IMG/VR virus record: IMGVR_UViG_2606217118_000001
Origin: a virus
Taxonomy: Duplodnaviria > Heunggongvirae > Uroviricota > Caudoviricetes
Strand: one strand, 5' to 3'
Length of the DNA: 44,417 bases
The translations under genes were made by a program, and so were the position numbers. The stretch's first letter is position 1. Each line of letters begins with the position of its first letter. The notes below the pieces were generated by a model. It ran no database searches, was not told the origin of the DNA, and saw only the letters and a program-made list of their open reading frames with translations. Below, piece by piece: positions 5,819 to 44,417 of this stretch.

Positions 5819-8800
5819 TCAACGAATACTGATGCCGGAAGCGGCTTTTTTGGTCACAATCACCGTACAGTCGGTGATATTACCTGCCCACTGATTGCCT
5901 TTATGGAAAACCTTAAACTCCAGAGTGACGTTTCCCCTGCCACTCGGCATATCAATAACCGCACTGTAGCTACCGGGAATGGCCCCTTTAGTTTCTCTGG
6001 ATGCGATTAATACACCGTTTTTGCGAACTTCAAAACCATAACCCGTGTATCTTGTACTTCCCGGGTTATTACCACTTCCCGGATCGCTATACGCTATTCC
6101 GTTAAAGATAATGGGCGGAATAATGATTTGACGGTCAAAGTTATGATCATCGCTGATGGTGACTGTAACCGTCCCGTTTGGTGTTTCCGTATTACCCCAC
6201 GTACCAGCCTGTTTCGGGAATGATTTGGATACAGCTTTAACGAAGTCACCTCTGACCTGAGTCGCCTCCAGCATGCCCTTAATCGTACAGTTTTCATTTA
6301 CCGTGACATTGTTGAGCGTCCCGGCGTTCGCATTCACACTGCCACTGATATCCGCATTTTTAGCGGTCAGCTTTCCGTCCGGTGTCAGGGAAAATGCCGG
6401 TGGATTTCCACCGCTGGTAATGGTGGGGGCCGTCAGGCGTTTCAGGAACACGTCGTTCATGAATATCTGATCGCCCTGACCAACAAACATCGGTTTTGTG
6501 TTGCCATTCGCAGGATTAACCATCGCAATCCTGTCCGCCGCCAGCAGCACCTGACTCTGCATGCCGTCAGGGGTGTTCTCAATACCGGCACCAATACCCG
6601 CGATATAAAGGCGTCCGTCCTGCATCTGCTGCAGCTTCACAGCCCACATGCTGTTCAGGTTATTATTTGTATCAACCTGAACTTTCTGTATCTGCTGGAT
6701 TGCCGCACTCTGGTCTTCCAGTTTTTTATTGACGGTCTGCGTGATTTCATTGCTGACATTCGTAATGGACGTCCTGATTTCAGCCAGGTCCGGCGCAAGC
6801 TGACCGTTATCAATCTGCGTCCACAGCTCCTGGGCCAGATGTGTTTTCCCGATTTCTCCTTTGAAAAAATCCAGGTAACCTTCCGCATCATCGCTCGCCC
6901 GACCGACAGCCTCCACGAATGCCGATTTGCCAACAGTGTTCACACTGCGAACGTAAAAATAATAATCATGACCCGGCTTGATATTGATACTGGCAGCTAT
7001 CCAGTACAGCGCCGTGCCAAGATAGCGGGCTGTAGTTTCAACCTGCCTGATATCGGTAATCCGCTTTTCCGAGAACCAGAACTCAAACTGTACCGTCGGG
7101 TCATAAACGGCAAGATGCGGCGTTGCGGTTATCTGAAAATAGCCCGGCGTCAGTTCAATCCGCGACGGCGTCGCCGGTGCGGCAATCCGGAACAATACCG
7201 ACGCCGGATCGCCCTGCTGTCCCCACGCATTTACCGCCCGGACTGTCAGCCTGTAGTTTCCCAGCGCCAGCTGCCTGAAGCGGTATGTGGTTTCCGTCGT
7301 CCGGGCTGTGCTGACCAGCCGCTCACTGCCATCGTCCGCTGTCACGGTCAGGCGAAGCATAAAGCTCACCCCCTTCACCACCTTCGGTGTGTCCCAGCGC
7401 GCCAGCACCTGATATTCCCCGCTGTCTGCGGAGACTTCGGCTGTCAGGTGCTGTACCGCTGGCGGCGTGACACCATTCACCGTGCCGCTCAAATCGCCGT
7501 CAAAGTGCGCCCCGTTATCCACGATGGCCTCTTTTTCCGGTACATGCTGCACGGCAGTGATGGCATACGTGCCGTCATCGTTCTCACGGATACTCACACA
7601 GCGGAACAGGCGCTGGCGCAACGTCGGCAACTTCAGCCCCCATACGCTGTATCCGGCAACGCCGTCAGGAACACGGCTCACTTTTACCTTCACGCCGTCG
7701 GTGACGGACTGGACCTCCACGCTGACCGGATTGCCACTTCCGTCAACCAGGCTTATCAGCGTGGTGCCGGAAGATGGCAGCGTGATTTCACGGTCGAGCG
7801 TCAGCGTCCGGGTCTGGCTGTTCACCGCCAGCACGCGCCCGCCGGTGCTGATACCGGCATAGTCATCATCGCAGATTTCAATGACATCGCCCGGTACATG
7901 GCGAAGCCCTTCAGCACCCACGCTGAAGTCCACGGTCTGCGTTTCCAGCAGCTCCGTTTTAATCAGCCACAGCCCGGCTCGGTGTGCCTGCCCCCGGCTG
8001 GTACAGCCAAAGGCATCCATCTTCGTGACGTTACGACCATAACGGGCAATGGCCTGCGTGTCCTCCACAAGCTCTGTCGCCGTCTCCCAGCCGTTATCCG
8101 GGTCAATCCAGTTCACCTCAACGGCATTATGGCGGTCCTTGAGGGCGCTGAAGCTGTAGCGGAACGGCGCGCCATCATCCGGCATCACCACATTACTGCG
8201 GTTATAGGTCCACACCTTATCCGACGGTCGGTCCTGCACGAACGTCAGCGTCTGCCCGTTCCATACCGGCATACAGCGCATCGCCGAGCAGAAATCACTG
8301 AGCACATCCCACGCCTTGCGCTGTGTGGTCAGGTACGCATTACAGGTGATGCGCGGCTCCGTGCCGCCAAAGCCGTCCGGCACTGACTGGTCGCAGTACT
8401 GGCCGATGACATACAGCGCCCATTTGTCCACATCCGCCGCACCAAGACGTTTCCCCATGCCGTAGCGTGGGTGGGTCAGCATATCCCACAGACACCAGGC
8501 CATGTTATTGCTGTATGCTGGCTTAAACGTTCCGTCCCAGATACCGCTGTATTGCCGCGTCTGCGGGTTATAATTCGACGGCACCTGCAGAATACGCCCG
8601 CGCAGATGATAATTACGGCTCACCTGCTGGCTGCCGAACTGCTCCGAGTCCACCTGCACACCGACCAGTGCCGTGTTCGGGTAGCACTGTTTCACATCGA
8701 TGATTTCGGTGTATGACGACCAGAGCGTTTTGTTCTGCAGCTGGTCTGTGGTGCTGTCCGGCGTCATCCTGCGCATCCGTATACTGAACGGGCGCGGCGG

Positions 8801-11363: not shown

Positions 11364-11692
11364 CAGTTCACCACCTGTTCAAACTCTGCGCTGAACTCAA
11401 CACGCAGCATACTGACCCGCGACGACCATTTTGCGCAGGTCACCTTTATCTGCCGCCACTCATAAGGCGGCGTCCACAGAAAGGCTTTCCAGCCCCCGTG
11501 CTCTTCCAGAAACGACTCCAGTACCGTGGCCTCCTCACGGGGGACAGAAAGCGTCACGCTGTACGTTTTCAGGTTGGCATTCAGCCCGGCAGGCGCTCGC
11601 TGGGAATAGCCATCACCAAAGCGCACCTTTCTTACAGAAGGGGCCGAAGCCACATCCATACCGGGTTTCACTTTCCAGCGGAAGGTTTTCAT
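11363..11692 (-). CDS. M: Tail tip protein M
   Basis: 109 aa, MKTFRWKVKPGMDVASAPSVRKVRFGDGYSQRAPAGLNANLKTYS... Confidence 0.95.
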   Translation of the reverse strand: MKTFRWKVKPGMDVASAPSVRKVRFGDGYSQRAPAGLNANLKTYSVTLSVPREEATVLESFLEEHGGWKAFLWTPPYEWRQIKVTCAKWSSRVSMLRVEFSAEFEQVVN

Positions 11693-14250
11693 CGTCCACC
11701 TCCGGAGAACAGGCCACCATCACGCATCTGTGTCTGAATTTCATCACGGGCACCCTTGCGGGCCATGTCATACACTGCCTTCATCATCTGTGGACCTGGC
11801 AGACCATTCGTACCGTCGTTCTGAATCACCACGTGATTGTTCTGATTAAAATTAATGCCTTCAGCCCGCCGCATCTGCGCCGGACTTCCGGCACCGCCCA
11901 CATAACCACCTTCCGCATAGCCCCGCATCAGGCGGTACAGGTTGCCGACACCAATCCGGCTGGTTGCCTCCTTCGTGAAGACAAATTCACCACGGTGAAC
12001 AATCCCCGCTGGCTCATATTTGCCGCCGGTTCCCGTAAATCCCCCGGTCGCAAAATGGAATTTCGCCGCAGCTGCCTGAATGGCTGTACCGCCTGACGCG
12101 GATGCGCCGCCACCAACAGCCCCGCCAATGGCGCTGCCGATACTCCCGACAATCCCCACCATTGCCTGCTTAAGCAGAATTTCTGTCATCATGGACAGCA
12201 CGGAACGGGTGAAGCTGCGCCAGTTCTGCTCACTGCCGGTCAGCATCGCCGCCATATTCTGTGCAATACCATCAAAGGTCTGCGTGGCAGCACTTTTAAC
12301 CTGCGACATACTGTCCGTGGCGCTCTCTTCCCACTCACTCCAGCCGGACTTCAGGCCTGCCATCCAGCTCCCGCGAAGCTGGTCTTCAGCCGCCCAGGTC
12401 TTTTTCTGCTCTGACATGACGTTATTCAGCGCCAGCGGATTATCGCCCTACTGTTCCTTCAGGCGCTGTTCCGTGGCTTCCCGTTCTGCCTGCCGGTCAG
12501 TCAGCCCCCGGCTTTTCGCATCAATGGCGGCCCGTTTTGCCCGTTGCTGCTGTGCGAATTTATCCGCCTGCTGCGCCAGCGCGTTCAGGCGCTCCTGATA
12601 CGTAACCTTGTCGCCAAGTGCAGCCAGCTGGCGTTTGTACTCCAGCGTCTCATCTTTATGCGCCAGCAGGGATTTCTCCTGTGCAGACAGCTGGCGACGT
12701 TGCGCCGCCTCCTCCAGTACCGCGAACTGACTCTCCGCCTTCCACAAATCCCGGCGCTGCTGGCTGATTTTCTCATTTGCTCCGGCATGCCTCTCCAGCG
12801 TCCGGAGTTCAGCCTGAAGCGTCAGCAGGGCAGCATGAGCACTGTCTTCCTGACGATCGCCCGCAGACACCTTCACGCCGGACTGTTTCGGCTTTTTCAG
12901 CGTCGCTTCATAGTCCTTTTTCGCCGCCGCCATCAGCGTGTTGTAATCTGCCTGCAGAATTTTCCCGTCCTTCAGTGCCTTGTTCAGTTCTTCCTGACGG
13001 GCGGTATATTTCTCCAGCGGCGTCTGCAGCCGTTCGTAAGCCTTCTGCGCCTCTTCGGTATATTTCAGCCGTGACGCTTCAGTATCGCTCTGCTGCTGCG
13101 CATTTGTGTCCTGTTGACTCTGCTGTTCAGCCTTCTTTCTCGCGGCTTCAAGCGCAAGACGGGCCTTTTCACGATCATCCCAGTAACGCGCCCGCGCTTC
13201 ATCGTTAACAAAATAATCATCCTTGCGCAGACTCCAGATGTCGTCCGCTTTCTTAAACGCAGCCTCTGCCTTAATCAGCATCTCCTGCGCGGTATCAGGA
13301 CGACCAATATCCAGCACCGCATCCCACATGGATTTGAATGCCCGCGCTGTCCTGTCTGCCCAGGTCTCCAGCGTACCCATGTTCTCTTTCAGGCGGCGGG
13401 TCTGGTCATCAAACCCTTTCGTCGCGGCCTCGTTCGCCGCCTGCAATGCCCCGGCTTCATCGCCGGAACGCTGCAACTGAGCAACATACGCAATCTGCTC
13501 CGCCGTCACGTTATGGAACTGGCGTGCCATCGCCGTCAACCCCGACGTCGGGTCTGTGGTCAGCTTCCCGAAGGCTTCAGCGACCTTGTCCACCTCCACA
13601 CCGGATGCAGAGGAGAAACGCGCCACACTCTGGCTGATGGACGCAATCTGAGCCTCACCGCTTACTCCCGCCTTAACCAGTGCGCTGAGTGACTCGCTGG
13701 TCTGGTTAAACGTCAGCCCTGCCACCTGCCCGGCTCTGGACAGGACCAGCATGCGATCTGCCGTCAGACCCGACTGATTGCCGGAAAGGACCAGCGTTTT
13801 GTTGAAATCGGACAGGGTTGAGTTGCCCTGATACCAGGCATACGCCAGCGCACCGGTCGCCACCGCCAGCGAGGTGGCCCCCACCATCGGCAGGTTGATC
13901 GCACCGGCAAGCCCCCTGAACATGGGGATCATCCCGCCGAAGGAGTCCTTAACCTGCCCCCCCTGTTGCAGCAGGATCAGCCACGGACTTTGCCCGCCTG
14001 CAAGCTGCGTGGCCACGTCGGTGAACTGTGCAGGCAGCATACGCATGGCGGCTTTATACTGTCCGACGGAAATCCCCGCTTTCTGTGCAGCCAGCGCCTG
14101 CCGGTTCATTGACTGTTCAACGACTGCCGCTGTTTTTTTCGCATCACTTTCCGTACCGGAAAAATGACGCCTGACTCTGGCCATCTGCTCGTCAAATCTG
14201 GCCGCATCCAGACTTAAATCAACGACCAGATCGCCTACCGGTTCAGCCAT
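11689..14250 (-). pseudogene. H: Tail tape measure gene H interrupted by an in-frame TAG (amber) codon at 12448-12450
   Basis: ORFs 12448..14250 (600 aa, MAEPVGDLVVDLSLDAARF...) and 11689..12417 (242 aa, ...MRDGGLFSGGGR) are in the same frame separated only by TAG; context ...RLKEQ*GDNPLALNNVMSEQKK. Confidence 0.9.
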
Positions 14251-16240: not shown

Positions 16241-16815
16241 CGCTTTATTACCATCCTCAGTTGATGCTGCAGCGCATAGCCCAGCTCTTTCGGAAGACGC
16301 TCACGCCGTATCCGCTCAATATTCTGTTTAAACGCCGTGGTCAGCGGCACCGCCATCGGGATTTTCACCACATCAATGGGGTAACGGTTTTTCCCGGCCA
16401 CACGCTGCATGACATGCCAGCGGCCATTTTTCAGTTGCTGAATAAACGCGCCGGGAATACGACGGTTTCCCACCACAAGCACGCTGCCGCCACCTTTCAG
16501 GGCTGAACGCTGCCCCTTTTTACGACGCCTGCGTCGGGACAGGACAATCCGCGCGTTACCCAGCTTTATTACGGGCAAATCCCCCCGGTTAACCTTGATT
16601 CTGGCCTGCGGATTTTTGACCGTGGCCCTTTTCAGCCAGGCCCTTTCCTTTACCAGTTTCCGGCGTACCTTTGTCTCACGGGCAACCTGTGACGCCGACT
16701 GCGATATCGCGGATGAAGCAACGCGGTTAATGGCCATTGCGGCGGCACCGGGCACCGCCGTTCTGCTGATACGGCTGAGGTTTTCAACGGCCTGCTCAAG
16801 ACCTTTTATGGCCAT
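16237..16815 (-). CDS. Z: Tail completion protein Z
   Basis: 192 aa, MAIKGLEQAVENLSRISRTAVPGAAAMAINRVASS... Confidence 0.95.
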   Translation of the reverse strand: MAIKGLEQAVENLSRISRTAVPGAAAMAINRVASSAISQSASQVARETKVRRKLVKERAWLKRATVKNPQARIKVNRGDLPVIKLGNARIVLSRRRRRKKGQRSALKGGGSVLVVGNRRIPGAFIQQLKNGRWHVMQRVAGKNRYPIDVVKIPMAVPLTTAFKQNIERIRRERLPKELGYALQHQLRMVIKR

Positions 16816-16826
16816 ACATCCCCCTT

Positions 16827-17180
16827 TCAGCGGCGACGGTTAACGGCAGGCGGTACGCCCCGCCCAAGCCAGAGATGACAGCTTCCGCCATCATCCGGCG
16901 AAATCCGGTCTATCCAGAAGTTTTCCTCACCGATGGTCAGCGTGTCGCCGCGCCGCAGCTGCCGCACATCATCAGTCCGGACAAACAGGGACGGGCTGGA
17001 GCCTTCAACGCGTACGCCCTGTCCGGCATAGCTGATATTTTCAGGGTCATCAAAAACACCACGTATTACTGCGCCGGACTGCTCACCGGATGTCATGGTG
17101 GCTGACGTTCCCATGTACCCGCGTATCGTTTCATCGGCGCGGGCAATGGCAGCATCGAACAGGTTATCGAAATCAGCCAC
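16827..17180 (-). CDS. FII: Head-tail joining protein FII
   Basis: 117 aa, MADFDNLFDAAIARADETIRGYMGTSATMTSGEQSGAVIRG... Confidence 0.95.
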   Translation of the reverse strand: MADFDNLFDAAIARADETIRGYMGTSATMTSGEQSGAVIRGVFDDPENISYAGQGVRVEGSSPSLFVRTDDVRQLRRGDTLTIGEENFWIDRISPDDGGSCHLWLGRGVPPAVNRRR

Positions 17181-28190: not shown

Positions 28191-28603
28191 AAGTAACCAC
28201 TCTTAACAGCATAACCAATTTTTTACGTACGTAAACCACTAAATGATATTTGCGAGAATGCTACCGAGTATTGAAAACACCACTACAAATACATAAGCAA
28301 ATCTCAACAAATAACCAACAAATAATTTCCAGCGTTATTTTTAGCTGGTTTAAATTGAATCTTCAAATTATAGAGCACTTATAAATAACAGCCATTAATA
28401 TAAATTGGCTAATAGATTTATTTTTATTCAGCCAAGAGCCATGAATAGGATTCGATAGAAAAAGTTCAGATAAAAATAGAGATCTACTTCACAAATCAAA
28501 TGAGAAACCAAAACTTACATCTTGAAATAATCACATTGATTAGATGAATATTTATCGCGCAGTGACATCATTTTTTAATAATAGTTCAAAAAAAGGGCTC
28601 ACG

Positions 28604-29686
28604 ATGAAAAAATTAACAGTGGCAATTTCTGCTGTAGCTGCATCAGTACTGATGGCGATGTCTGCTCAGGCAGCTGAAATTTATAATAAAGACAGTAACA
28701 AGCTGGATCTGTACGGGAAAGTTAATGCTAAGCACTACTTCTCCTCTAATGATGCAGATGATGGTGATACTACTTATGCCCGTCTTGGCTTCAAAGGTGA
28801 AACCCAAATCAACGATCAACTGACTGGTTTCGGTCAGTGGGAATATGAATTCAAAGGCAACCGCGCTGAATCTCAAGGTTCCTCCAAAGATAAAACCCGT
28901 CTTGCCTTCGCTGGCCTGAAATTCGGTGACTACGGCTCCATCGATTATGGCCGTAACTACGGTGTAGCATACGATATTGGTGCATGGACCGACGTTCTGC
29001 CAGAATTCGGTGGCGATACCTGGACCCAAACAGATGTATTCATGACTGGTCGCACCACAGGTGTTGCAACTTATCGTAACAATGACTTCTTTGGTCTGGT
29101 TGATGGTCTGAACTTTGCTGCTCAGTATCAGGGTAAAAATGACCGCACTGACGTAACTGAAGCTAATGGTGATGGTTTCGGTTTCTCCACTACTTATGAG
29201 TATGAAGGATTCGGTGTAGGTGCAACCTATGCTAAATCTGACCGCACTAATAATCAGGTTATCTACGGTAACAACAGCCTGAATGCATCTGGTCAAAATG
29301 CTGAAGTATGGGCAGCTGGTCTGAAATATGATGCGAACAACATCTATCTGGCTACCACCTATTCTGAAACCCAGAACATGACTGTTTTTGGTAATAACCA
29401 TATTGCCAACAAAGCACAAAACTTCGAAGTAGTTGCACAATATCAGTTCGACTTCGGTCTGCGTCCGTCCGTTGCTTACCTGCAATCTAAAGGAAAAGAC
29501 TTGGGTGCGTGGGGTGATCAGGACCTGGTTGAATATATTGATGTAGGTGCAACCTATTACTTCAACAAAAATATGTCCACTTTTGTTGATTACAAAATCA
29601 ACCTGATTGATAAGAGCGATTTCACGAAAGCATCTGGCGTTGCTACCGATGATATCGTTGCTGTAGGTATGGTTTACCAGTTCTAA
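28604..29686 (+). CDS. Outer membrane porin, OmpC/OmpF/PhoE family (phage-borne Lc/NmpC-like)
   Basis: Signal peptide [39 protein letters not shown]..., C-terminal ...VGMVYQF; AAGGG SD; longer upstream ORF extension rejected. Confidence 0.9.
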
Positions 29687-29874: not shown

Positions 29875-30258
29875 TTAATTAGAGTTATTAACAACGATAT
29901 CCATCTCTAACCGGATATCTAATGCCATTAACATCCCTTCAATTATACCCTCAGCCTTCTGTAACCTTTTCCCGATATAACCATCAGAGCAGCAATGCTT
30001 ACCTGCCAGTGACATGAATGTCATACCGACTACATAATAATCTACTAATAAATCGTGCAAATCGCTGTTGTTCTTTTTCAGACGGGCCATGCACCCGCAA
30101 ATGATCATCGCGTCATCGTCACAACATTGCGGGCGAGATTTTACTTTTGAAGGAATTAATCCCTTAAAACCGGCGGCAATGGACGACCAGGTCACATCTT
30201 CATGATTATTAGCCGCCCACGCTCCCCAACGCTCAAGAACCATCTGAATATCACGCAT
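29875..30258 (-). CDS. Q: Late-gene antiterminator Q (DLP12 QuuD-like)
   Basis: Start at ATG giving [24 protein letters not shown]... (127 aa); track ORF begins at an upstream TTG. Confidence 0.85.
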
Positions 30259-30343: not shown

Positions 30344-30484
30344 TCATACTCCTGCTCCTGTCAGGGTTTTGGCGTAATTCTTCAGTATTCGGTAATCGGT
30401 CAAAACAGAACCGGGGAAACGATATAAGCGCAGACGCCCCCAGCGGTGGCGAAGACGCTCTGCCATATAAGACTCAAACATCAT
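30344..30484 (-). CDS. Small protein YlcG-like (46 aa)
   Basis: [46 protein letters not shown]; start ATGATG overlaps rusA stop. Confidence 0.55.
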
Positions 30485-30843
30485 TCATCTCCCAGTTCGG
30501 TGATGGTCAGTTCCAGCCTCCCACCTTTGGTAACAGGCATCTTCACAACGCGGTAATCAACGACCTGAGCATCATCCAGCCAGAAACCTGCTTTGGTGAG
30601 TGCGTCAAAAGCGGCCTTTTGCAGATTATCCAGGTCACGGCGACGGCGATCCGGCATGTGGCACTCAATGCGGATTTTCACAGGCATAGCCAGGCCGATA
30701 TCCAGCATTGCGTTTTTAATGATTCGGGCGACGTTATCGCGGTATGCCTGCCCCTCTGCGCTGATGTGCGTGCGCCCGCGATTATGGCGGTAATAGCGAT
30801 TATTGCTCGGAGGCCAGGGTAATGTGATGCTGTAGGTATTCAC
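30481..30843 (-). CDS. rusA: Holliday junction resolvase RusA
   Basis: 120 aa ...[40 protein letters not shown]...; GTG start. Confidence 0.9.
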
Positions 30844-30968
30844 GCCTTAATAACCCCCTCTTTCAGCCAGATAACCTGTGTTCTCGCCATACCTTCCAGC
30901 GCGCATTCTTTTGCATATGCAGCATCGACTTGCTTGGCATGCCCTTTACCGGCAATCTTCTGTATGCG
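30840..30968 (-). pseudogene. C-terminal remnant of a YbcO-like gene, closed upstream by two in-frame TAG codons
   Basis: Frame reads [42 protein letters not shown] with stop overlapping rusA start (GTGA); no start codon; identity from memory. Confidence 0.35.
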
Positions 30969-31049
30969 CTAAACCTAGATAGAATCCACTCTGTGCACAT
31001 TGAAGCCCGCTCTATGCTTCCTTTCAGGTATTGAAGGGATTGAGATGGG

Positions 31050-31397
31050 CTAAGCATTATTGGCCTCCTGCATCAGGAGAAAGACAATCATGGCGGCGCG
31101 GAGGGGTCTGGTATCAAATATTGGGCTTACGCCTTTTGCATCCACACACCATTCAGTTAACTGGTCTAAGATAGAAATCCTGTATTTCTCAATAATCGGC
31201 CATGAAGCGCTCGGATCATTGCAGTAGTCAGGCAAATGATTTAATGGCTCAAAAGTTGTATCAGCATTTCCGTAATACCATTTGTTGGTGTTATTCCCTG
31301 ATGTTTCCGGTTTACTTGCCCAAAGGCCTTTAAAAATTATGTCTCCTACCATTCTGTTAATTTCAAAATCACTTAACTGTGAATAATCCATTGTCAT
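31050..31397 (-). CDS. NinX-like phage protein (unknown function)
   Basis: Start [43 protein letters not shown]...; ATGA overlap with ninE stop. Confidence 0.6.
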
Positions 31398-31570
31398 TTC
31401 CTCGCACGATATCTTAGCCACCGGATATCCCACAGGTGAGCTGTGTAATTGAAGGTTTTTACGTCAGATTCTTTTGGGATTGGCTTGCGTTTATTTCTGG
31501 AGCGTTTCGTTGGAAGGTATTTGCAGTTTTCGCAGATGATGTCGGTGAAACTTCGTCGCTGTCGCCTCAT
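31394..31570 (-). CDS. ninE: NinE
   Basis: 58 aa [58 protein letters not shown]; ATGA overlap with upstream methyltransferase stop. Confidence 0.75.
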
Positions 31571-32094
31571 GCCGCCCTCCTGACGCCCTGCCCGATCGCC
31601 ATCAATGCCGCTTTGGATACGGTAGTAAACATCCGCCGAGGACTGATGAACGGTCGCCAAATCAGCAGCATGGAGCCTTTGCTGTTTCCCTTCTTCTCCA
31701 GCCCTGTCGATGGTTCGATAAAATTAATCCGTCCATCAGTGATAATGCGAACTTCGTCGACACTCTCCAGAGCCTTGCTGAACCATCCGACTGACATATC
31801 CTCTGGCACAAGCATAACTACCGTCTGTCGCTGTTGTATGCACTGCTCAGCGGCTTTTTCCACCCACGGCCTGATATTGCTGTACGGTGGGTTATTCCAG
31901 ATTGCACCGTGGCTTATCCACTCAGAATTTAGCGCGTCGTCGGCCTCAGTTAACCAGTGAGCGCACAGAGCATTTTTGTCGCTCGCTGCAGAATCCAGCC
32001 AGAATCCAAACTCAATATCCAGTGCATCAAAAAGCCAAAGCGGCGTTTGCCAGCAGTCCTTGTCGTGTGCTGGCGTATTTGATTTGATAGTCAT
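31567..32094 (-). CDS. Orphan DNA N6-adenine methyltransferase (phage Dam-like, NPPY motif)
   Basis: Start [41 protein letters not shown]...; catalytic NPPYS motif; ATGA overlap with ninB stop. Confidence 0.8.
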
Positions 32095-32531
32095 GCAGCC
32101 CGATCTCCCCATCTCGCTTTCCACTCCAGAGCCAGTCTCGCTTCGTCTGACCACTTAACGCCACGCTCTGTACCGAATGCCTGTATAAGCTCTAATAGCT
32201 CCGCAAATTCGCCTACACGCATCCTGCTGGTTGACTGGCCTATTACCACAAAGCCATTCCCGGCAAGGTTAGGAACAACATCCTGCTGCTTTAATGCTGC
32301 GGTAAACACACACTTCCAGCTTTCTGCATCCAGCCAGCGACCATGCCATTCAACCTGACGAGAGACGTCACCTAAGCAGGCCCATAGCTTCCTGTTTTGG
32401 TCTAAGCTGCGGTTGCGTTCCTGAATGGTTACTACGATTGGTTTGGTTGGGTCTGGAAGGATTTGCTGTACTGCGTGAATAGCGTTTTGCTGATGTGCTG
32501 GAGATCGAATTTCAAAGGTTAGTTTTTTCAT
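32091..32531 (-). CDS. ninB: NinB recombination protein
   Basis: Start MKKLTFEIRSPAHQQNAIHAVQQILPDPTKPIVVTIQERNRSLDQNRKLWA...; 146 aa. Confidence 0.9.
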   Translation of the reverse strand: MKKLTFEIRSPAHQQNAIHAVQQILPDPTKPIVVTIQERNRSLDQNRKLWACLGDVSRQVEWHGRWLDAESWKCVFTAALKQQDVVPNLAGNGFVVIGQSTSRMRVGEFAELLELIQAFGTERGVKWSDEARLALEWKARWGDRAA

Positions 32532-32604
32532 GACTTCCCTCTCCCCCAAATAAAAAGGCCTGCGATTACCAGCAGGCCTGTTATTAGCTCAGTAATGTAG
32601 ATGG

Positions 32605-32895
32605 TCATCTTTTAACTCCATATACCGCCAATACCCGTTTCATCGCGGCACTCTGGCGACACTCCTTAAAAATCAGGTTCGTGCTCATCTTTCCTTCCCG
32701 TTCTTCCCTGGTAGCAAACCGGTAATACACCGTTCGCCAGACCTTACCTTCGATAACCAGAAGACCTGCCCGTGCCATTTTAGCCGCGGCCTGATTTATG
32801 CTGGTTACTGTTGCGCCTGTTAGCGCGGCAACGTCCGGCGCACAGAAGCTATTATGCGTCCCCAGGTAATGAATAATTGCCTCTTTGCCCGTCAT
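32605..32895 (-). CDS. ren: Ren protein
   Basis: 96 aa MTGKEAIIHYLGTHNSFCAPDVAALTGATVTSINQAAAKMARAGLL... Confidence 0.9.
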   Translation of the reverse strand: MTGKEAIIHYLGTHNSFCAPDVAALTGATVTSINQAAAKMARAGLLVIEGKVWRTVYYRFATREEREGKMSTNLIFKECRQSAAMKRVLAVYGVKR

Positions 32896-33593
32896 ACACT
32901 TGCTCCTTTCAGTCCGAACTTAGCTTTAATTTCTGCGATCTTCGCCAGAGCCTGTGCACGATTTAGAGGTCTACCGCCCATGACAGGAAGTTGTTTTACT
33001 GGTTCAGGGATCGCCTCACCACGGTTAATTCTCGCAGTCATATGGACAAGCTCATCTGCGGCCTTACGGCGTAATTCCGCATCAGTAAGCGCATTGGCCC
33101 GCATGTTCTGATACAGGTTGGTAACCAGCCAGTAGTGCGCGTTTGATTTCCACGGATAAGACTCCGCATCCGGATACAGGCCTCGCTTCCGGCAATACTC
33201 GTAAACCATATCAACCAGCTCGCTGACGTTTGGCAGTCCGGCGGTAACGGATGCTTCTTCCCGGCACCATGCAACAAACTGCCCGGGTGATGGCAGAAAT
33301 GGTCGATTCTGCCGACGGGCTACGCGCATTCCTGCGTTAACCTGTTCCATCGTGGTGATCCCGTTTTCCCGAAAAGCCAGAACCCACTGGCGACGGATTT
33401 CGTTCACTTCGTTCTGGTCACGGTTAGCCAGGCTCGCCGGGAAAGTTGCCAGTAACTGGCTGAACACACCGTTGATGATCTGCGCTACCTGCTGTACCTG
33501 CGGCTTTTCGTCGTACTGTTCCGGCATGTTGTTGGCGATCCGACGCATCTGCTCACGGTCAAAGTTAACCATCTGTGCGGCGATGTTTTTCAT
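32892..33593 (-). CDS. P: Replication protein P (helicase loader)
   Basis: 233 aa MKNIAAQMVNFDREQMRRIANNMPEQYDEKPQVQQVAQIINGVFSQ... Confidence 0.95.
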   Translation of the reverse strand: MKNIAAQMVNFDREQMRRIANNMPEQYDEKPQVQQVAQIINGVFSQLLATFPASLANRDQNEVNEIRRQWVLAFRENGITTMEQVNAGMRVARRQNRPFLPSPGQFVAWCREEASVTAGLPNVSELVDMVYEYCRKRGLYPDAESYPWKSNAHYWLVTNLYQNMRANALTDAELRRKAADELVHMTARINRGEAIPEPVKQLPVMGGRPLNRAQALAKIAEIKAKFGLKGASV

Positions 33594-34489
33594 AGATCCA
33601 CCCCGTAAATCCAGTCTGTGTTTGTCAGGTCGAGTTTTGGTTTGCTGGCTGTCACGCCTGCCTGTTGCTTGTTACGGTTGATTTCGAGTTGGGTCCACTT
33701 ATCGCGGAGTTTGGCCGGGCTCAGCACGTTACCGGACCAGAAGTTGTCCTGGCATGCCCAGCGGAACAGCACACACATGTCGCGGTGGTTACGTCCGTCA
33801 CGTTCACGCATCAGGCGGATATCGTTAGCCCACCCAGCAAAATTCGGTTTTCTGGCTGATGGTGCGATAGTCTTCACCATGTCAAACATCCACTCTGCGG
33901 CGGTCAGGTCTTCTGCTGTCCCCCACTTGCTGCCGCTCTGAATTGCAGCATCCGGTTTCACCACAGAAAGGTCGTTTTCTGGCTGGTCAGAGGATTCGCC
34001 AGAATTCTCGGACGAATAATCTTTTCTTTTTTCTTTTGTAATAGTGTCTTTTGTGTCCCCCTGTTTTGAGGGATAGCAATCCCCCAATTTGAGGGATGTT
34101 TTATCCCTCGTTTTAGGGGATTTTCCCTCGTTTTGAGGGATACACCATTCTGAGATGTTTTTATTTGGTCCAAACATGCCGCCTTGCTGCTTGATAATAT
34201 TCATTCTGACGAGTTCTAACTTGGCTTCATTGCACCGTTTGACAGGTAACTTTGTAATCTCGCTAAGTTGAGAATCGGTGATTCTGTCCATTGGTTTATT
34301 CCACCCATAGGTTTTACGCAGAATGGCAAGCAGCACTTTAAACTGTCGCTTGGTCAGATCTGCGCCCGAATAAGCCTCAAGCAGCATATTTGATAGTCTG
34401 GCGTAACCATCATCGAGATCTGCCACATTACGCTCCTGTCCGGCAAAGTTACCTCTGCCGAAGTTGAGTATTTTTGCTGTATTTGTCAT
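33590..34489 (-). CDS. O: Replication initiator protein O
   Basis: 299 aa MTNTAKILNFGRGNFAGQERNVADLDDGYARLSNMLLEAYSG...; contains ori. Confidence 0.95.
   Translation of the reverse strand: MTNTAKILNFGRGNFAGQERNVADLDDGYARLSNMLLEAYSGADLTKRQFKVLLAILRKTYGWNKPMDRITDSQLSEITKLPVKRCNEAKLELVRMNIIKQQGGMFGPNKNISEWCIPQNEGKSPKTRDKTSLKLGDCYPSKQGDTKDTITKEKRKDYSSENSGESSDQPENDLSVVKPDAAIQSGSKWGTAEDLTAAEWMFDMVKTIAPSARKPNFAGWANDIRLMRERDGRNHRDMCVLFRWACQDNFWSGNVLSPAKLRDKWTQLEINRNKQQAGVTASKPKLDLTNTDWIYGVDL
34058..34142. repeat. ori: Replication origin: four iterons (O-binding sites) with adjacent AT-rich segment (about 34011-34056)
   Basis: ccccctgttttgaggga / atcccccaatttgaggga / atccctcgttttagggga / ttccctcgttttgaggga, each an inverted repeat; T-rich run alongside. 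Confidence 0.9.
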
Positions 34490-34566
34490 AATGACTCCTG
34501 TTGATAGATCCAGTAATGACCTCAGAACTCCATCTGGATTTGTTCAGAACGCTCGGTTGCCGCCGG
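34490..34566 (+). ncRNA. oop: oop antisense RNA (overlaps 3' end of cII) with its terminator
   Basis: Plus-strand hairpin cgctcggttgccgccgggcg followed by TTTTTTATT at 34541-34568, as recalled for the lambda oop terminator; 5' end approximate. Confidence 0.55.
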
Positions 34567-34818
34567 GCGTTTTTTATTGGTGAGTCCATCAAGCGCATAC
34601 TTAAAAGCCCTGCTAATCGGACTGATGTCTGATGCCATTCCGAAAGCACACAAGACCGAAGCAATAAATCTCCAGTCCGTTCTGCTTATCTTCGATTCAT
34701 GACAGCCAATCATCTTTGCCAGACCGCGCTGGGTAATAGCTGACAGATTGATAAGTAAATCTGTTTCTGCGCGATCAACGTCACGCTGTGATAGTTTGCT
34801 GTAACTTGTTCTTTCCAT
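34522..34818 (-). CDS. cII: Transcriptional activator CII, chimeric (non-lambda N-terminal region, lambda-like C-terminus)
   Basis: 98 aa; C-terminus ...LTNKKRPAATERSEQIQMEF matches lambda CII, N-terminal ~75 aa do not. Confidence 0.8.
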   Translation of the reverse strand: MERTSYSKLSQRDVDRAETDLLINLSAITQRGLAKMIGCHESKISRTDWRFIASVLCAFGMASDISPISRAFKYALDGLTNKKRPAATERSEQIQMEF

Positions 34819-34899
34819 TTCTTAAGATTTCCAATAGTGAATAGTTAGTTGAAAGGTATGCGTGGAAACGCATATGGCCTTAGTTGGTCAGATATCTTG

Positions 34900-34950
34900 G
34901 AACTCGCTTTTCAGCGACGTAGGACGAATGTCCGTTGTTACAAAGAGCGG
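34900..34950 (-). promoter_or_regulatory. nutR-like site (boxA plus boxB hairpin)
   Basis: Minus strand CGCTCTTTGTAACAA (boxA-like) followed by tcgctgaaaagcga hairpin, immediately downstream of cro. Confidence 0.6.
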
Positions 34951-34959
34951 ATCCGCTTA

Positions 34960-35175
34960 TTAAGCGGCTTTGTGTTCCGGCGGGAACACGTCATCAAGAC
35001 TGACTTTTGCGCCTAACTTGTTTAGGCACGCAACAAGAGCACGGCATGTTTTAAGGTCTGGGAAGCGACGACCAGATTCCCAATGTCCGATAGCTCCCTG
35101 TGTGCATCCAACTGCCTTAGCAAGTGTTGTTTGAGAGATATTCAGTGACTCTCGATATTTTCGTAGGTTGCTCAT
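34960..35175 (-). CDS. cro: Cro-like repressor (HTH, XRE family), non-lambda
   Basis: 71 aa MSNLRKYRESLNISQTTLAKAVGCTQGAIGHWESGRRFPDLKTCRALVACLNKLGAKVSLDDVFPPEHKAA; GGAGGG SD; longer upstream ORF extension rejected. Confidence 0.8.
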   Translation of the reverse strand: MSNLRKYRESLNISQTTLAKAVGCTQGAIGHWESGRRFPDLKTCRALVACLNKLGAKVSLDDVFPPEHKAA

Positions 35176-35286
35176 ATGCCCTCCATAGTAAACACGAATA
35201 AAAAAATACAATATGTACTTTACGAATACAAGTAAAAATACACATTGTGCATGGATGGTTCCAGTACAAAGCGTAATAATAAGGAC
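35176..35286. promoter_or_regulatory. Divergent cro/cI control region (putative OR operators, PR and PRM)
   Basis: AT-rich with repeated TACAA/TTGTA-type inverted half-sites (tacaatatgta, tacacattgtg, tacaagta); between divergent cro and cI. Confidence 0.55.
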
Positions 35287-35946
35287 ATGAAAATGAAATG
35301 GTATGAACTGGCTAGATCCAGAATGAAAGAGCTCGGCATAACTCAAGAGAAGTTAGCCGAAGAGCTAGGTATGACGCAGGGTGGGATTGGACACTGGTTG
35401 CGCGGATCTCGTCATCCATCTCTTAGTGATATTGGTGTGGTGTTTAAATACCTTGGTATTGATAACATATCATTCAACCACGACGGGACATTTTCACCTG
35501 TTGGCGAATACTCATCGGCCCCAGTTAAAAAACAATATGAGTACCCTGTTTTTTCTCATGTTCAGGCTGGGATGTTCTCTCCAGAACTCAGAACCTTTAC
35601 CAAAGGCGATGCGGAGAGATTGGTAAGCACAACCAAAAAAGCCAGTGACTCTGCATTCTGGCTTGAGGTTGAAGGTAACTCAATGACCGCACCAACAGGT
35701 TCCAAGCCCAGCTTTCCTGACGGGATGTTAATTCTGGTTGACCCTGAGCAGGCTGTTGAGCCAGGCGATTTCTGTATAGCCAGACTTGGTGGTGATGAGT
35801 TTACCTTCAAGAAACTGATCAGGGATAGCGGTCAGGTGTTTCTACAGCCACTAAACCCACAATACCCAATGATCCCATGCAATGAGAGTTGTTCCGTTGT
35901 GGGGAAAGTTATCGCTAGTCAGTGGCCTGAAGAGACGTTTGGGTGA
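35287..35946 (+). CDS. cI: CI repressor, chimeric: novel N-terminal HTH domain fused to lambda-like C-terminal S24/LexA-type domain
   Basis: [40 protein letters not shown]...; from [15 protein letters not shown] onward matches lambda CI; start could be 35293. Confidence 0.85.
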
Positions 35947-36012
35947 TATATGTGAAATGCATATATTGATATAAATGCAGCAATATCAAATAGTTAAAAG
36001 GTTATATTTTTA

Positions 36013-36393
36013 ATGAATGATCTTGATAAGAAAAAGTACGACCAAGTTATTGATTCTGTGAACTTCGCCCTTAGATCGTTGTCAGAGTTATTCGAAGCCC
36101 ATGGAATGCATGGGATGTATGATCTAACGAATCCAAGCCTTGATGAGCTAAAATTAGTGTTTACAAGGATGAAAAACGGAGTTGACTCTATTGCTCAAAG
36201 CTTTGAGCACATGGTAGAGACAGCAAAGGATATGGATGCCGCAAGTGCAAGCATAAATGTTATGAACATCAAGCAAGGATTGATGTATGCTGAATCACTA
36301 TTGCTTGCTGTAGAGAAATTAGACTATGATAAATGTGTGGAAGCAAATACGCAGATAAAAACCCACGATCTTCCACCAACCCAATGGCCTTAA
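36013..36393 (+). CDS. Hypothetical 126-aa protein in the immunity-region moron slot (rexAB position); unknown function
   Basis: ORF MNDLDKKKYDQVIDSVNFALRSLSELFEAHGMHGMYDLTNPSLDELK...; AT-rich codon usage unlike backbone; follows cI on same strand. Confidence 0.65.
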   Translation: MNDLDKKKYDQVIDSVNFALRSLSELFEAHGMHGMYDLTNPSLDELKLVFTRMKNGVDSIAQSFEHMVETAKDMDAASASINVMNIKQGLMYAESLLLAVEKLDYDKCVEANTQIKTHDLPPTQWP

Positions 36394-36462
36394 TAGTAAA
36401 TCAAGATTTCATATAGTCTATTTGAACTAGGCTAGTACCATAAAATAAACCGAGGAAACGCA

Positions 36463-36564
36463 ATGAAAACCATGTCCACTCTGCACAAAGATGCAATGAC
36501 CCTGAGATCTCTCATTAACGAGATTCTGGCTCGCTCGTCAGCACACACCAAAAAAGCTGCATAA
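36463..36564 (+). CDS. Hypothetical 33-aa protein downstream of the 126-aa moron gene
   Basis: MKTMSTLHKDAMTLRSLINEILARSSAHTKKAA with strong SD GAGGAAA 6 nt upstream; followed by terminator. Confidence 0.45.
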   Translation: MKTMSTLHKDAMTLRSLINEILARSSAHTKKAA

Positions 36565-36574
36565 TGCCTACATA

Positions 36575-36603
36575 ACCCGGCCTCAGCGCCGGGTTTTCTT
36601 TGC
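36575..36603 (+). terminator. Rho-independent terminator ending the cI-moron transcript
   Basis: acccggc-ctcagc-gccgggt hairpin followed by TTTTCTTT. Confidence 0.75.
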
Positions 36604-36739
36604 CTCACGATCGCCCCACCTAAAAACACATAACCAATTGTATTTATTGAAAAATAAATAGATGCAACCCACTAAACCACGCAATTCTGATCTCTCCTTA
36701 CATCGCCGAGGCAATACATCCACGCTAAAAAACAACACT

Positions 36740-36830
36740 ATTAAATACAAAGCGTTATAAAAAACCACGCCAACTTACAACAAATTGTATTGATCTTGTA
36801 AAGTACATATCGCACTATTTAACCGTCAGC
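36740..36830 (+). promoter_or_regulatory. Putative OL/PL region
   Basis: AT-rich segment upstream of nutL with operator-like motifs (acaaattgtattgatcttgtaaagtaca) resembling those between cro and cI. Confidence 0.4.
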
Positions 36831-36864
36831 AGGACGCTGGAAGCCAAATGGAACAGACTGGCAG

Positions 36865-36909
36865 GCTCTTTAAACAACGTCGACTCTCGACTACGTGGCT
36901 GAAAAGCCA
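36865..36909 (+). promoter_or_regulatory. nutL-like site (boxA GCTCTTTAAACAA plus boxB hairpin tggctgaaaagcca)
   Basis: boxA-like motif then GAAAA-loop hairpin closely matching the nutR hairpin; lies upstream of N. Confidence 0.6.
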
Positions 36910-37007
36910 GATCACCCAACCACATAAGCTGTGGGATGCAATGCCGAAGCAACCGTCTCAGGAGGAGCTTCGAGATTGCATCGCCAAAGTTTATTCGGGA
37001 GGAATCC

Positions 37008-37280
37008 ATGTCCAGAAAAACAGAATTTAAAGGCACCGCAGCTTCTCGCCGTAGAGCTCGTCGCGCAAATCTGCAAAGTCAGGAGGCGATCAGCTCCGAC
37101 ACGCTACACAGGCCAACCCCTTCACGAGTGGTCTTGCAATGCAAGCGCAAACCAGCAATGAGAGCAGAAGTGATAACTCTGACAACGTTGACCAGAAAAT
37201 ATGAAGGTTCAACTTGTCTTCCGAACGTAGCTCTTTACGCGGCAGGCTACCGGAAATCAAAACAACTGACGGCGAGATGA
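37008..37280 (+). CDS. N: Antitermination protein N (non-lambda; P22 gp24-like C-terminus) with N-terminal arginine-rich motif
   Basis: MSRKTEFKGTAASRRRARRANLQSQE...LPNVALYAAGYRKSKQLTAR; SD GGGAGGAA; longer track ORF starts upstream. Confidence 0.75.
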   Translation: MSRKTEFKGTAASRRRARRANLQSQEAISSDTLHRPTPSRVVLQCKRKPAMRAEVITLTTLTRKYEGSTCLPNVALYAAGYRKSKQLTAR

Positions 37281-37296
37281 TAAATTCATTTGCTAA

Positions 37297-37878
37297 TTAC
37301 TTGTTTTTGCCATGCTTATCCTGAGCGATAAGTTCATCCATAAGGCTGTCTGCCTTCCCGGCAAACCGAATGTAGCACTCATTTCTATAGCGTTCCGGGA
37401 TAACAAAACGGTCGATTTCAGGATATCCAGTAGCAGAAGGTATCCGAATAAGAAGCCCTTTTTCGAGCAATGAGATTGCTTCAGGGCTTCCCTTTTCTGT
37501 CTTTAGCTGGTTATTCGCGGCTACAGCGAATGCCAAATACGCTCTTTCTCCAAGAGTTAACGAATCAAACAAATCTTGCACATATTTTTCTTCTTTAGAT
37601 TTGCACTTCTGAGCAGCGGATACCTCAATTCTTTCAGTCACAGCGTGATAAGCGGAATTAACAACACCGTTAAGCACATAGCTAACGCAGAACAACAGGA
37701 TGTAATACATCCAATAATAAGGAAGGATTTCTGGATTATGCAGGTTTATCCATTCTTTTACGCTTACCGGCATAACAATAATCAATATGATCAGGATGAT
37801 TAGCATATGAATCAACTGTTTAAGTGTCATTCCTTGCAGGAAAAAATGCATTAGTTCCTGCCACCATGAGTTGTTCAT
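37297..37878 (-). CDS. sieB: Superinfection exclusion protein B (SieB-like) membrane protein, antisense to the PL operon
   Basis: 193 aa MNNSWWQELMHFFLQGMTLKQLIHMLIILIILIIVMPVSV... with two hydrophobic segments; convergent with N. Confidence 0.6.
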   Translation of the reverse strand: MNNSWWQELMHFFLQGMTLKQLIHMLIILIILIIVMPVSVKEWINLHNPEILPYYWMYYILLFCVSYVLNGVVNSAYHAVTERIEVSAAQKCKSKEEKYVQDLFDSLTLGERAYLAFAVAANNQLKTEKGSPEAISLLEKGLLIRIPSATGYPEIDRFVIPERYRNECYIRFAGKADSLMDELIAQDKHGKNK

Positions 37879-38022
37879 CGGCGTTTCTCTTTTGCTCTCT
37901 GTAGGGGTGAATAGAGTTTATCCGATTTCTCGCTGTAGGGGTACACGAGAACCACCGAGCCTGATGTGGTTAAAAGACAGGCACAATCTTTACTACCGCA
38001 ATCCACTATTTAAGGTGATATA

Positions 38023-41374: not shown

Positions 41375-41450
41375 CAACCACTGAATGCATTTTTCTGGCA
41401 GCGGGCTTCATATTCTGTGTGCTTATGCTTGCCGACATGGGGCTTGTTCA

Positions 41451-41666
41451 ATGACACCTCAGCAAGAAAACGCCCTTCGCAGCATTGCCCGTCAGGCTAA
41501 TTCTGAAATCAAAAAAGCCAGACAGCAGTTTCCGGATAAAAACGTCGATGACATTTGCCGTAGCGTACTAAAGAAGCACCGCGAAACGGTAACGCTGATG
41601 GGATTCACACCGACTCATTTAAGCCTGGCGATCGGCATGTTGAACGGCGTCTTTAAGGAACGGTGA
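41451..41666 (+). CDS. Small early-left protein (lambda orf60a-like)
   Basis: Start MTPQQENALRSIARQANSEIKKARQQFPDKNVDDICRSVLKKHRETVTLMGF...; longer ORF extension rejected. Confidence 0.6.
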   Translation: MTPQQENALRSIARQANSEIKKARQQFPDKNVDDICRSVLKKHRETVTLMGFTPTHLSLAIGMLNGVFKER

Positions 41667-43779: not shown

Positions 43780-44417
43780 CACAGAAAACCCCCAGCTAGG
43801 CTGGGGGTTCCGGAAAGCTTTCAGCTTTGAGCCAGTTATTAAAACCCCTTTTGATTTGTTAAAACACCTTGCGGTCTGGCAACTGCAAGTGTCAAACAAG
43901 AAATCAAAAGGGGGTCCCAATGGGGAACGAAAAGAGCTTAGCGCACACCCGATGGAACTGTAAATATCACATAGTTTTTGCGCCAAAATACCGAAGACAA
44001 GTGTTCTACAGAGAGAAGCGTAGAGCAATAGGCAGTATTTTGAGAAAGCTGTGTGAGTGGAAAAGCGTACGGATTCTTGAAGCTGAATGCTGTGCAGATC
44101 ATATCCATATGCTTGTGGAGATCCCGCCCAAAATGAGTGTATCCGGCTTTATGGGATATCTGAAAGGGAAAAGCAGTCTGATGCTTTACGAGCAGTTTGG
44201 TGATTTGAAATTCAAATACAGGAACAGAGAGTTCTGGTGCAGAGGGTACTACGTCGATACGGTGGGTAAGAACACGGCGAAGATACAGGATTACATAAAG
44301 CACCAGCTTGAAGAGGATAAAATGGGAGAGCAGTTATCGATTCCCTATCCGGGCAGCCCGTTTACGGGCCGTAAGTAACGAAGTTGGATGCAAATGTCAG
44401 ATCGTGTGCGCCTGTTA
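43780..44417 (+). mobile_element. IS200-family insertion sequence, partial (left-end hairpins plus tnpA; right end beyond window)
   Basis: Left-end palindromes cccccagc-tag-gctggggg and gaaagctttc followed by an IS200-type TnpA ORF. Confidence 0.8.
43920..44378 (+). CDS. tnpA: IS200/IS605-family Y1 (HUH) transposase TnpA
   Basis: Start MGNEKSLAHTRWNCKYHIVFAPKYRRQVFYREKRRAIGSILRKLCEWKSVRILEAECCADHIHMLVEIPPK (152 aa). Confidence 0.9.
   Translation: MGNEKSLAHTRWNCKYHIVFAPKYRRQVFYREKRRAIGSILRKLCEWKSVRILEAECCADHIHMLVEIPPKMSVSGFMGYLKGKSSLMLYEQFGDLKFKYRNREFWCRGYYVDTVGKNTAKIQDYIKHQLEEDKMGEQLSIPYPGSPFTGRK

Follow-up and report, generated by a model that had tools for sequence, protein, structure and literature searches.

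A T1/VT2-family orphan N6-adenine methyltransferase in the nin region of a lambda-like prophage, probably a GATC enzyme of lytic growth

What would a lambda-like prophage do with a DNA adenine methyltransferase gene lodged in its nin region? The question is raised by IMG/VR virus record IMGVR_UViG_2606217118_000001 (Caudoviricetes), a stretch of 44,417 nucleotides that is called the window here. The initial annotation of this locus had described a 'Dam-like' N6-adenine methyltransferase gene, coupled to ninB, ninE and a NinX-like gene and lacking a cognate restriction gene, and had proposed that such enzymes either protect phage DNA from host restriction or change host methylation patterns in the lysogen. 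Our analysis favours the first of these roles. With a probability of about 0.8, the gene encodes an S-adenosylmethionine (SAM)-dependent orphan DNA N6-adenine methyltransferase of the phage, which is expressed in lytic growth, methylates GATC and brings an anti-restriction benefit.

The family of the enzyme is the firmest part of this answer. The protein is a full-length member of the T1/VT2-type phage N6-adenine methyltransferases, matching Pfam PF05869 with E = 8e-65 (218 bits against a cut-off of 28.1) over profile positions 1-167 of 169, and the NCBIfam equivalog TIGR01712 with 264.2 bits (cut-off 97.05) over positions 1-165 of 165. It also matches phrog_111, 'DNA methyltransferase', with E = 9e-88. 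These family profiles, together with the residues N68-P-P-Y71, bear out the annotated N6-adenine methyltransferase with its NPPY motif. The family is very large: when 1.84 billion cluster representatives (clusters at 50% identity) were searched with its profile, 15,956 proteins matched at E <= 0.001, of which 6,564 did so at E <= 1e-10.

The probable target is suggested by named relatives. The methyltransferase is identical to the phage Nil2 gene product at 175 of 175 residues and to VT2-Sakai orf32 at 174 of 175 (99.4%), the single difference being the conservative substitution I60V; its identity to genes of many Stx1- and Stx2-converting phages is 98-99%. In the VT2-Sakai record, orf32 is annotated as 'similar to DNA methylase' and is the only methylase-like annotation in the first 50 kb. 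T1 Dam, a more distant homologue (33% identity, E = 2e-26) that matches the same single Pfam family, is a GATC enzyme. A 2019 methylome study of Shiga toxin-producing Escherichia coli (STEC) strains gives M.EcoVT2Dam of the E. coli prophage VT2-Sa as an orphan methyltransferase with GATC as its known target (PMC6602927). We infer that orf32 is M.EcoVT2Dam. On that footing, the 99.4% identity to orf32 and the homology to T1 Dam point to GATC adenine methylation by the enzyme of the window.

An enzyme that is not GATC-specific, being relaxed or non-specific, or acting on single-stranded DNA or on the recombination intermediates of NinB and RusA, might be expected of a bare catalytic domain that has no recognition domain. 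We consider this very unlikely, however, in view of the near-identity to orf32, the probable counterpart of the enzyme cited as GATC-specific, and of the GATC target of T1 Dam. Furthermore, no unexplained N6-methyladenine motif appears in the methylomes of STEC strains with two copies of the VT2 enzyme (PMC6602927), and an obligate link to NinB is at odds with the neighbours of the methylase, which are not conserved across genera.

Conservation within the family was read from alignments of 50 and 92 diverse members, 33-80% identical to the query. In these, T17, D34, N68 and P70 are invariant, while P18, F31, A37, W59, P69, Y71, L95, W104, G121, R122 and F125 are at least 90% conserved. The conserved elements are W15-x-T17-P18, F31-x-L-D34-x-A-A37, W59, N68-P-P-Y71, L95, W104 and G121-R-x-x-F125, so that the enzyme has motif IV N-P-P-Y as well as the W-x-T-P and D-x-A-A elements of its family. 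D34-S-A-A37 occupies the position at which related enzymes have motif I, where the cofactor is bound, and by analogy may have a role in SAM binding. A glycine-rich FxGxG SAM loop was found nowhere in the family alignments of either size. Judging from these alignments, the whole family lacks a canonical motif I, so that its absence here is no sign of decay. This bears on the initial annotation, which held that a missing SAM-binding motif would refute its claim. Such a test is unsafe, because the canonical loop is absent from the whole family, in which F-x-L-D-x-A-A is conserved instead, and yet a near-identical enzyme (orf32, if correctly equated with M.EcoVT2Dam) is cited as active.

A structure model built from 92 diverse sequences reached a predicted local distance difference test score (pLDDT) of 95.1 and a predicted template modelling score (pTM) of 0.91; an earlier model from a shallow alignment was poor. 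In the model, a helix (19-29) precedes a short strand (31-34), some 28 mostly coil residues and a strand (64-67) that leads into NPPY, beyond which come the usual helix-strand units of the fold. The predicted fold is that of the Class I SAM-dependent methyltransferases. Among solved structures the model is closest to PCIF1, M.TaqI and M.BseCI, and less close to E. coli Dam (EcoDam) or T4Dam. Neither a sequence search nor a profile search with the 50-member alignment found a related solved structure among all PDB sequences; matches to SdiA and Med31 were rejected as chance, the latter arising through the string 'WCNPPYS'. With the Pfam limit raised to E <= 10, no match to the E. coli/T4 Dam family (MethyltransfD12) was obtained, and PF05869 was the only family found.

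These features can be placed in an existing classification. In the 'Group 2' of Iyer et al., the M.EcoKI/M.TaqI type, there is an N-terminal helix and the helices around strand 3 have degenerated into coil; the group takes in PCIF1 and the domains of DIRS1 retrotransposons. The Dam enzymes of E. coli and T4 are placed apart from it, in a 'Group 3' marked by the insertion of a DNA-recognition domain (PMC4738411). As modelled, our enzyme matches 'Group 2' (M.TaqI/M.EcoKI, gamma-type). The DIRS methyltransferase domain, moreover, is detectable with the PF05869 profile (PMC3783388). Because Group 2 includes PCIF1 and the DIRS domain is found by PF05869, the resemblance to PCIF1 fits what has been described before and is hence not new.

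The same data bear on the idea that the gene is a decayed, inactive relic. This could be argued from the missing glycine-rich motif, the FxGxG-type loop being absent from the family alignment, and from the stretch between strand 1 and strand 4, which has only ~28 residues that are mostly coil in the model. It is nonetheless most improbable. The same non-canonical layout recurs across 15,956 clusters in which T17, D34, N68 and P70 are invariant, hundreds of phages with genomes deposited as complete have an intact and essentially identical open reading frame (ORF), and the near-identical VT2-Sakai gene would be the one cited as an active enzyme. Degeneration of the strand-3 helices is, besides, normal in active enzymes of the M.TaqI/M.EcoKI type (Iyer et al., PMC4738411).

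The claim that the methyltransferase is an orphan was supported from several sides. No restriction-endonuclease family of Pfam was found among the unplaced non-structural ORFs scanned in the 44-kb window, and seven unplaced ORFs that were also scanned with PADLOC matched no defence model. For the structural genes and a few small ORFs the assignment came from position only, the other genes were identified as those of a lambdoid phage by Pfam or by position, a 93-aa ORF at 41385-41666 was scanned with Pfam only, and NinE, which lay outside the PADLOC scan, matched its own Pfam, NCBIfam and PHROG families only. The matches of the scanned unplaced ORFs were to SieB, a Rha-family regulator, an IS200-type transposase, Ead/Ea22, LprI, DUF1398 and DUF2528, or there were none. 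A hidden nuclease among the neighbouring ORFs was rejected on these Pfam and PADLOC scans, within the limits of profile searches. For the methyltransferase itself, the best PADLOC models belong to the 'oMTase' (orphan methyltransferase) class. At nine loci of Yersinia, Serratia and Providencia with relatives 66-73% identical, the gene stands alone in the prophage early region, and no nuclease neighbour was seen at any of them.

The methylase could still be one half of a restriction-modification pair whose nuclease had gone unrecognised in a small adjoining gene, for instance that of NinE or NinX, both of which have no assigned function and are packed against the methylase. This is barely worth entertaining: PADLOC gives NinX no nuclease or defence match, P22 and phage L carry NinE and NinX without a methylase (PMC8022706), the Yersinia and Providencia loci carry the methylase without NinE or NinX, and VT2-Sakai has ninE but no NinX adjoining the methylase. 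NinB as an obligate partner was likewise rejected, because the upstream neighbour varies with the genus, being a DUF1367 gene in Serratia, a replication-module gene in Providencia and an unrelated small gene in a YqaJ/integrase-side module in Yersinia. In these contexts, the methylase behaves as an independent mosaic cassette.

The Providencia prophages (L012-L014) have two further features in the same neighbourhood. A Lar restriction-alleviation gene (~5440-5630) lies a few genes downstream of the 66%-identical methylase relative, and a second methyltransferase, of the N6_N4_Mtase family (7890-8534), is found just after Q. This arrangement suggests that anti-restriction functions are stacked in those prophages. 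The presence of Lar near the methylase fits an anti-restriction theme, but proves nothing.

When the enzyme would be made can be predicted from the position of its gene. The window is a near-complete lambda-like prophage in reverse orientation. The tail and head genes are on the minus strand (~1-24.6 kb), and the lysis genes come next, with a porin gene on the opposite strand. Beyond these the minus strand carries Q, the nin region, P, O, cII and cro, and the plus strand the genes for repressor, N, gam, bet and exo. Read along the one strand, the gene order is O-P-ren-hairpin-ninB-methyltransferase-ninE-NinX-rusA-ylcG-Q. The segment is a lambdoid nin region, with small genes on one strand between O/P/ren and Q, packed by ATGA overlaps and with a putative terminator in front (Table 1). 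The terminator-like hairpin, between ninB and an intact ren (32605-32895), was found by a consensus scan; RNA folding gives an 8-bp GC-rich stem, although a z-score of only -1.4 was obtained for the 77-nt stretch. By its position, we take this hairpin to be the counterpart of lambda tR2.

Because the methylase gene lies downstream of the hairpin in the repressor-controlled rightward early operon, its expression is predicted to be lytic-only and delayed-early. It would be silent under repressor and its product would be made during lytic growth or induction, once N permits read-through. The enzyme would then most likely methylate the GATC adenines of replicating phage DNA, for which the window offers 112 sites. 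The most probable benefit would be fully methylated progeny genomes, since host Dam would lag behind phage replication, and such genomes could resist GATC-cutting, methylation-sensitive restriction enzymes in the next host. The general basis for this anti-restriction benefit is provided by the orphan methyltransferases of phages. With host Dam alone, the virion DNA of lambda and P22 is reported to be under-methylated, possibly as replication outruns modification (PMC8022706).

Could the main role of the enzyme lie instead in the lysogen or in the lysis-lysogeny balance, where it might supplement Dam at promoter GATC sites, or quiet the SOS response and so stabilise the prophage? A copy in Phi24B, equal in size (528 nt) and position, came out of lysogen cultures as an expressed antigen, and the Phi24B methylase was suggested by the authors as a possible supplement to host Dam (PMC3342100). 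The same paper cites host Dam as needed for stable 933W lysogeny, and the GATC density of the window peaks across the immunity and replication region, at 32-38 kb. However, the gene belongs to the rightward operon under repressor control and is preceded by the terminator-like hairpin, spontaneously induced cells are always present in lysogen cultures, and with ~99.9% of GATC sites already methylated in STEC an extra GATC enzyme would change little (PMC6602927). A main role in the lysogen is thus unlikely. For the same reasons of gene position, so is the changed methylation pattern in the lysogen that had been suggested for this locus.

Several points nevertheless count against a lytic GATC methylase with an anti-restriction benefit. 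The assigned specificity depends on a citation and on near-identity, joined through the probable equation of orf32 with M.EcoVT2Dam. The anti-restriction benefit would have to arise in lambdoid phages of E. coli, whose Dam already marks GATC. Moreover, GATC is under-represented in the window, with 112 sites against the 202 expected from trinucleotide frequencies (ratio 0.55), and among the 4-base palindromes only CTAG is scarcer relative to expectation. Such scarcity is not expected if the phage relied on protecting these sites. Their distribution is uneven: they are densest at 32000-38000, and across the region of replication and immunity their density is 2-3 times that of the structural genes. 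Finally, the detection of the Phi24B copy as expressed in lysogen cultures (PMC3342100) may reflect a lysogen role, or spontaneous induction.

These considerations also affect how the enzyme could be tested. The initial annotation would have been refuted by the finding of no new methylated motif in cells expressing the gene. Because host Dam methylates ~99.9% of GATC sites in STEC strains (PMC6602927), no new motif is expected in a dam+ host even from an active enzyme, and this is an unsafe test that would mislead there. Functional methylation tests are informative only in a dam- background. A comparison of induced phage with and without the methylase, which had also been proposed, may be impossible for this prophage because of an amber codon in its tape-measure gene. 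The gene (11689-14250) has an in-frame TAG at 12448-12450 on the minus strand, where ev207 has TAT (Tyr), and this divides the lambda H-type tape-measure gene into ORFs of 600 and 242 aa; the other listed phage matches are likewise one base off the window in the 301-base stretch compared. As read from the sequence, tail assembly by this prophage would probably require a suppressor.

Profile searches backed all four gene names given to the chain (ninB, methyltransferase, ninE and NinX-like; Table 1), and in a 100% identical module RefSeq labels ninB 'recombination protein NinB'. The range first assigned to the chain, 31050-32094, takes in the methyltransferase, ninE and NinX, while ninB lies just outside it. 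The chain itself was said to be linked by three successive ATGA stop/start overlaps. The plus-strand TCAT that corresponds to ATGA on the minus strand is indeed present at all three sites, and at each of them a TGA ends a long upstream ORF and the overlapping ATG begins the next. The third overlap is contested, however. The NinX ORF begins with M-T-M-D and thus has two candidate ATGs, yielding 115 aa from the first and 113 aa from the second, and the second (window 31391, six bases downstream) is the start used by RefSeq PGAP, phage mEp332 and phage ev099. Upstream of both there is a Shine-Dalgarno-like GAGG, at a distance of 8 nt from the second ATG but of only 2 nt from the first. The uncontested overlaps are those of ninB with the methylase and of the methylase with ninE, whereas the third depends on the choice of NinX start.

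Table 1. Features of the nin region and of the methyltransferase gene, with positions numbered from the first letter of the window.
Feature	Coordinates	Strand	Evidence or remark
Orphan DNA N6-adenine methyltransferase, 175 aa, T1/VT2 'Dam' family	31567-32094	-	PF05869, TIGR01712
T17-P18 codons, part of the W-x-T-P element just before helix 19-29	32041-32046	-	Family alignments, model DSSP
D34-S-A-A37 codons, end of strand 1 (F-x-L-D-x-A-A)	31984-31995	-	D34 invariant; strand 31-34 in model
N68-P-P-Y71 codons, catalytic motif IV, directly after strand 64-67	31882-31893	-	GTACGGTGGGTT on + strand
Terminator-like hairpin between ren and ninB	32556-32579	-	AGGCCTGC-loop-GCAGGCCT then TTTTATTT (T-run)
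ninB / orf recombination mediator, 146 aa	32091-32531	-	Pfam NinB PF05772, E = 2e-54; phrog_72
ATGA overlap, ninB stop / methyltransferase start	32091-32094	-	Same 4-base overlap in VT2-Sakai, 16434-16437 of its record
ATGA overlap, methyltransferase stop / ninE start	31567-31570	-	Same overlap in VT2-Sakai, 16958-16961 of its record
ninE, 58 aa, no assigned function	31394-31570	-	Pfam NinE PF05322, E = 3e-42
ATGA at ninE stop; its ATG is one of two candidate NinX starts	31394-31397	-	Read from sequence
NinX-family (DUF2591) gene	31050-31397	-	Pfam Phage_P22_NinX PF10765, E = 8e-17; phrog_444, E = 3e-44
rusA Holliday-junction resolvase, downstream in the same transcription unit	30481-30843	-	Pfam RusA, E = 6e-23; NCBIfam NF007305, 279 bits
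Q-type late antiterminator (quuD-like), end of nin region	29875-30258	-	Pfam Phage_antitermQ, E = 1e-53; end coordinate taken from the RefSeq start in the identical module

Such overlaps are not exceptional for this phage. Further ATGA junctions join O to P (33590-33593), P to ren (32892-32895) and rusA to ylcG (30481-30484), and across the prophage about 14 of the 31 listed ATGA sites were judged to be true gene junctions, including those of R/Rz, A/W/B, Z/U and bet/exo. ATGA overlaps have been described as a general property of lambdoid nin regions (PMC8022706). The tight packing of the methylase against ninB and ninE would be consistent with its translational coupling.

Neither is the locus rare. 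The 1.5-kb module from ninB to NinX has matches in 427 phage records. Over a dozen phages with genomes deposited as complete carry it at 99.5% identity, and the modules of the viable close relatives ev099 and mEp332 are 99.5% and 99.2% identical, respectively. Of 5426 complete E. coli genomes, 2295 gave a match to the module and 597 contain at least 80% of it. Eight of the E. coli records listed are 100% identical over the module, and in 100% identical modules RefSeq names the gene 'phage N-6-adenine-methyltransferase'. The methyltransferase gene is already known, extremely common and annotated in many E. coli genomes, and the VT2-Sakai gene that differs from it by one residue probably encodes an enzyme that had been cloned before and assigned to GATC. 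In E. coli 2009C-3133 (NZ_CP013025.1, L003 7556-9159), ren is split by an IS3-family element and the module is 100% identical to the window.

A truncated C-terminal remnant of a DUF1364 (ybcO-like) gene, a pseudogene in RefSeq, lies at 30840-30929, its TGA overlapping the GTG start of rusA (GTGA). It is accompanied by a 64-aa ORF (30863-31057) without a Pfam match, labelled 'ninF' or hypothetical in mEp332 and ev099. This rearrangement at 30840-31057 appears to be inherited and not specific to the window, because phages deposited as complete genomes show the same arrangement. An ORF for an IS200-type (Y1) transposase (43869-44378, plus strand; Pfam Y1_Tnp, E = 5e-38) lies past the exo/Ea22-like early-left genes, where the window ends on the right. 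No integrase gene was found among the window ORFs examined. The porin gene, of OmpC/NmpC type (28544-29686, plus strand), lies between the Q antiterminator and the lysis genes, and is an insert of the lysogenic-conversion type common to mEp332, ev099 and the DLP12-like quuD/rusA/ylcG block.

Comparison with known systems begins with the VT2-Sakai prophage, where orf32 has the same length, the same position between ninB and ninE and both 4-base overlaps. The downstream neighbours differ, being NinX here and other genes in VT2-Sakai, and the window has no stx genes. Matching genes occur in 933W-type and other Stx phages as well as in the lambdoid phages ev099, mEp332 and Nil2. T1 Dam (AAP49979, 237 aa), the founding member of PF05869, matches the profile with E = 1.7e-70, against 8e-65 here. 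The two proteins align over residues 5-147 and have W-x-T-P, D-x-A-A, NPPY and G-R-x-x-F in common, and T1 Dam, too, is an orphan enzyme in a phage genome. However, only T1 Dam has an N-terminal extension of ~48 residues and an insertion of ~14 residues after position 109, and T1 is a virulent siphovirus in which the gene has a different context.

The M.TaqI-type enzymes (M.TaqI, M.BseCI, MmeI and HsdM) and PCIF1/CAPAM, although nearest in fold, are only 12-17% identical in sequence. They have 380-750 residues with separate recognition domains or subunits, whereas our enzyme has 175 residues and none of these, and the substrate of PCIF1 is the cap-adjacent adenosine of mRNA and not DNA. The features that set the enzyme apart are those of its family: a bare 175-residue catalytic core without a recognition domain or a glycine-rich cofactor loop, no solved structure for any member, and as nearest solved neighbour PCIF1, the eukaryotic writer of N6,2'-O-dimethyladenosine (m6Am) at the mRNA cap. 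The reading of a 4-bp site by a core-only enzyme is again a question for the family and not for this locus. The core might read GATC by itself, perhaps as a dimer or through loops 35-63 and 120-140, and if so would offer a minimal model for sequence-specific adenine methylation and a close prokaryotic or phage counterpart of the PCIF1/DIRS clade; this proposal is tentative and, on balance, doubtful.

Compared with E. coli Dam, T4 Dam and DpnM (alpha-type, 'Group 3'), our enzyme has NPPY in place of DPPY, no FxGxG and no inserted DNA-recognition domain, and only ~105-110 residues align structurally. It does not belong with the classical Dam enzymes, either by profile or by the FxGxG/DPPY/inserted-domain layout. 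The outcome of this study is one of interpretation, in that the annotation 'Dam' names a common target and the usual check for a SAM motif is unsuited to the PF05869 family. The description of the gene as 'Dam-like' holds for its reported target, GATC, but fails for its descent, given its place in PF05869, the lack of a classical Dam match and a fold nearer to PCIF1 and M.TaqI. The methyltransferase of this prophage is of a different lineage from E. coli Dam with a common reported target, sharing its name but not its ancestry.

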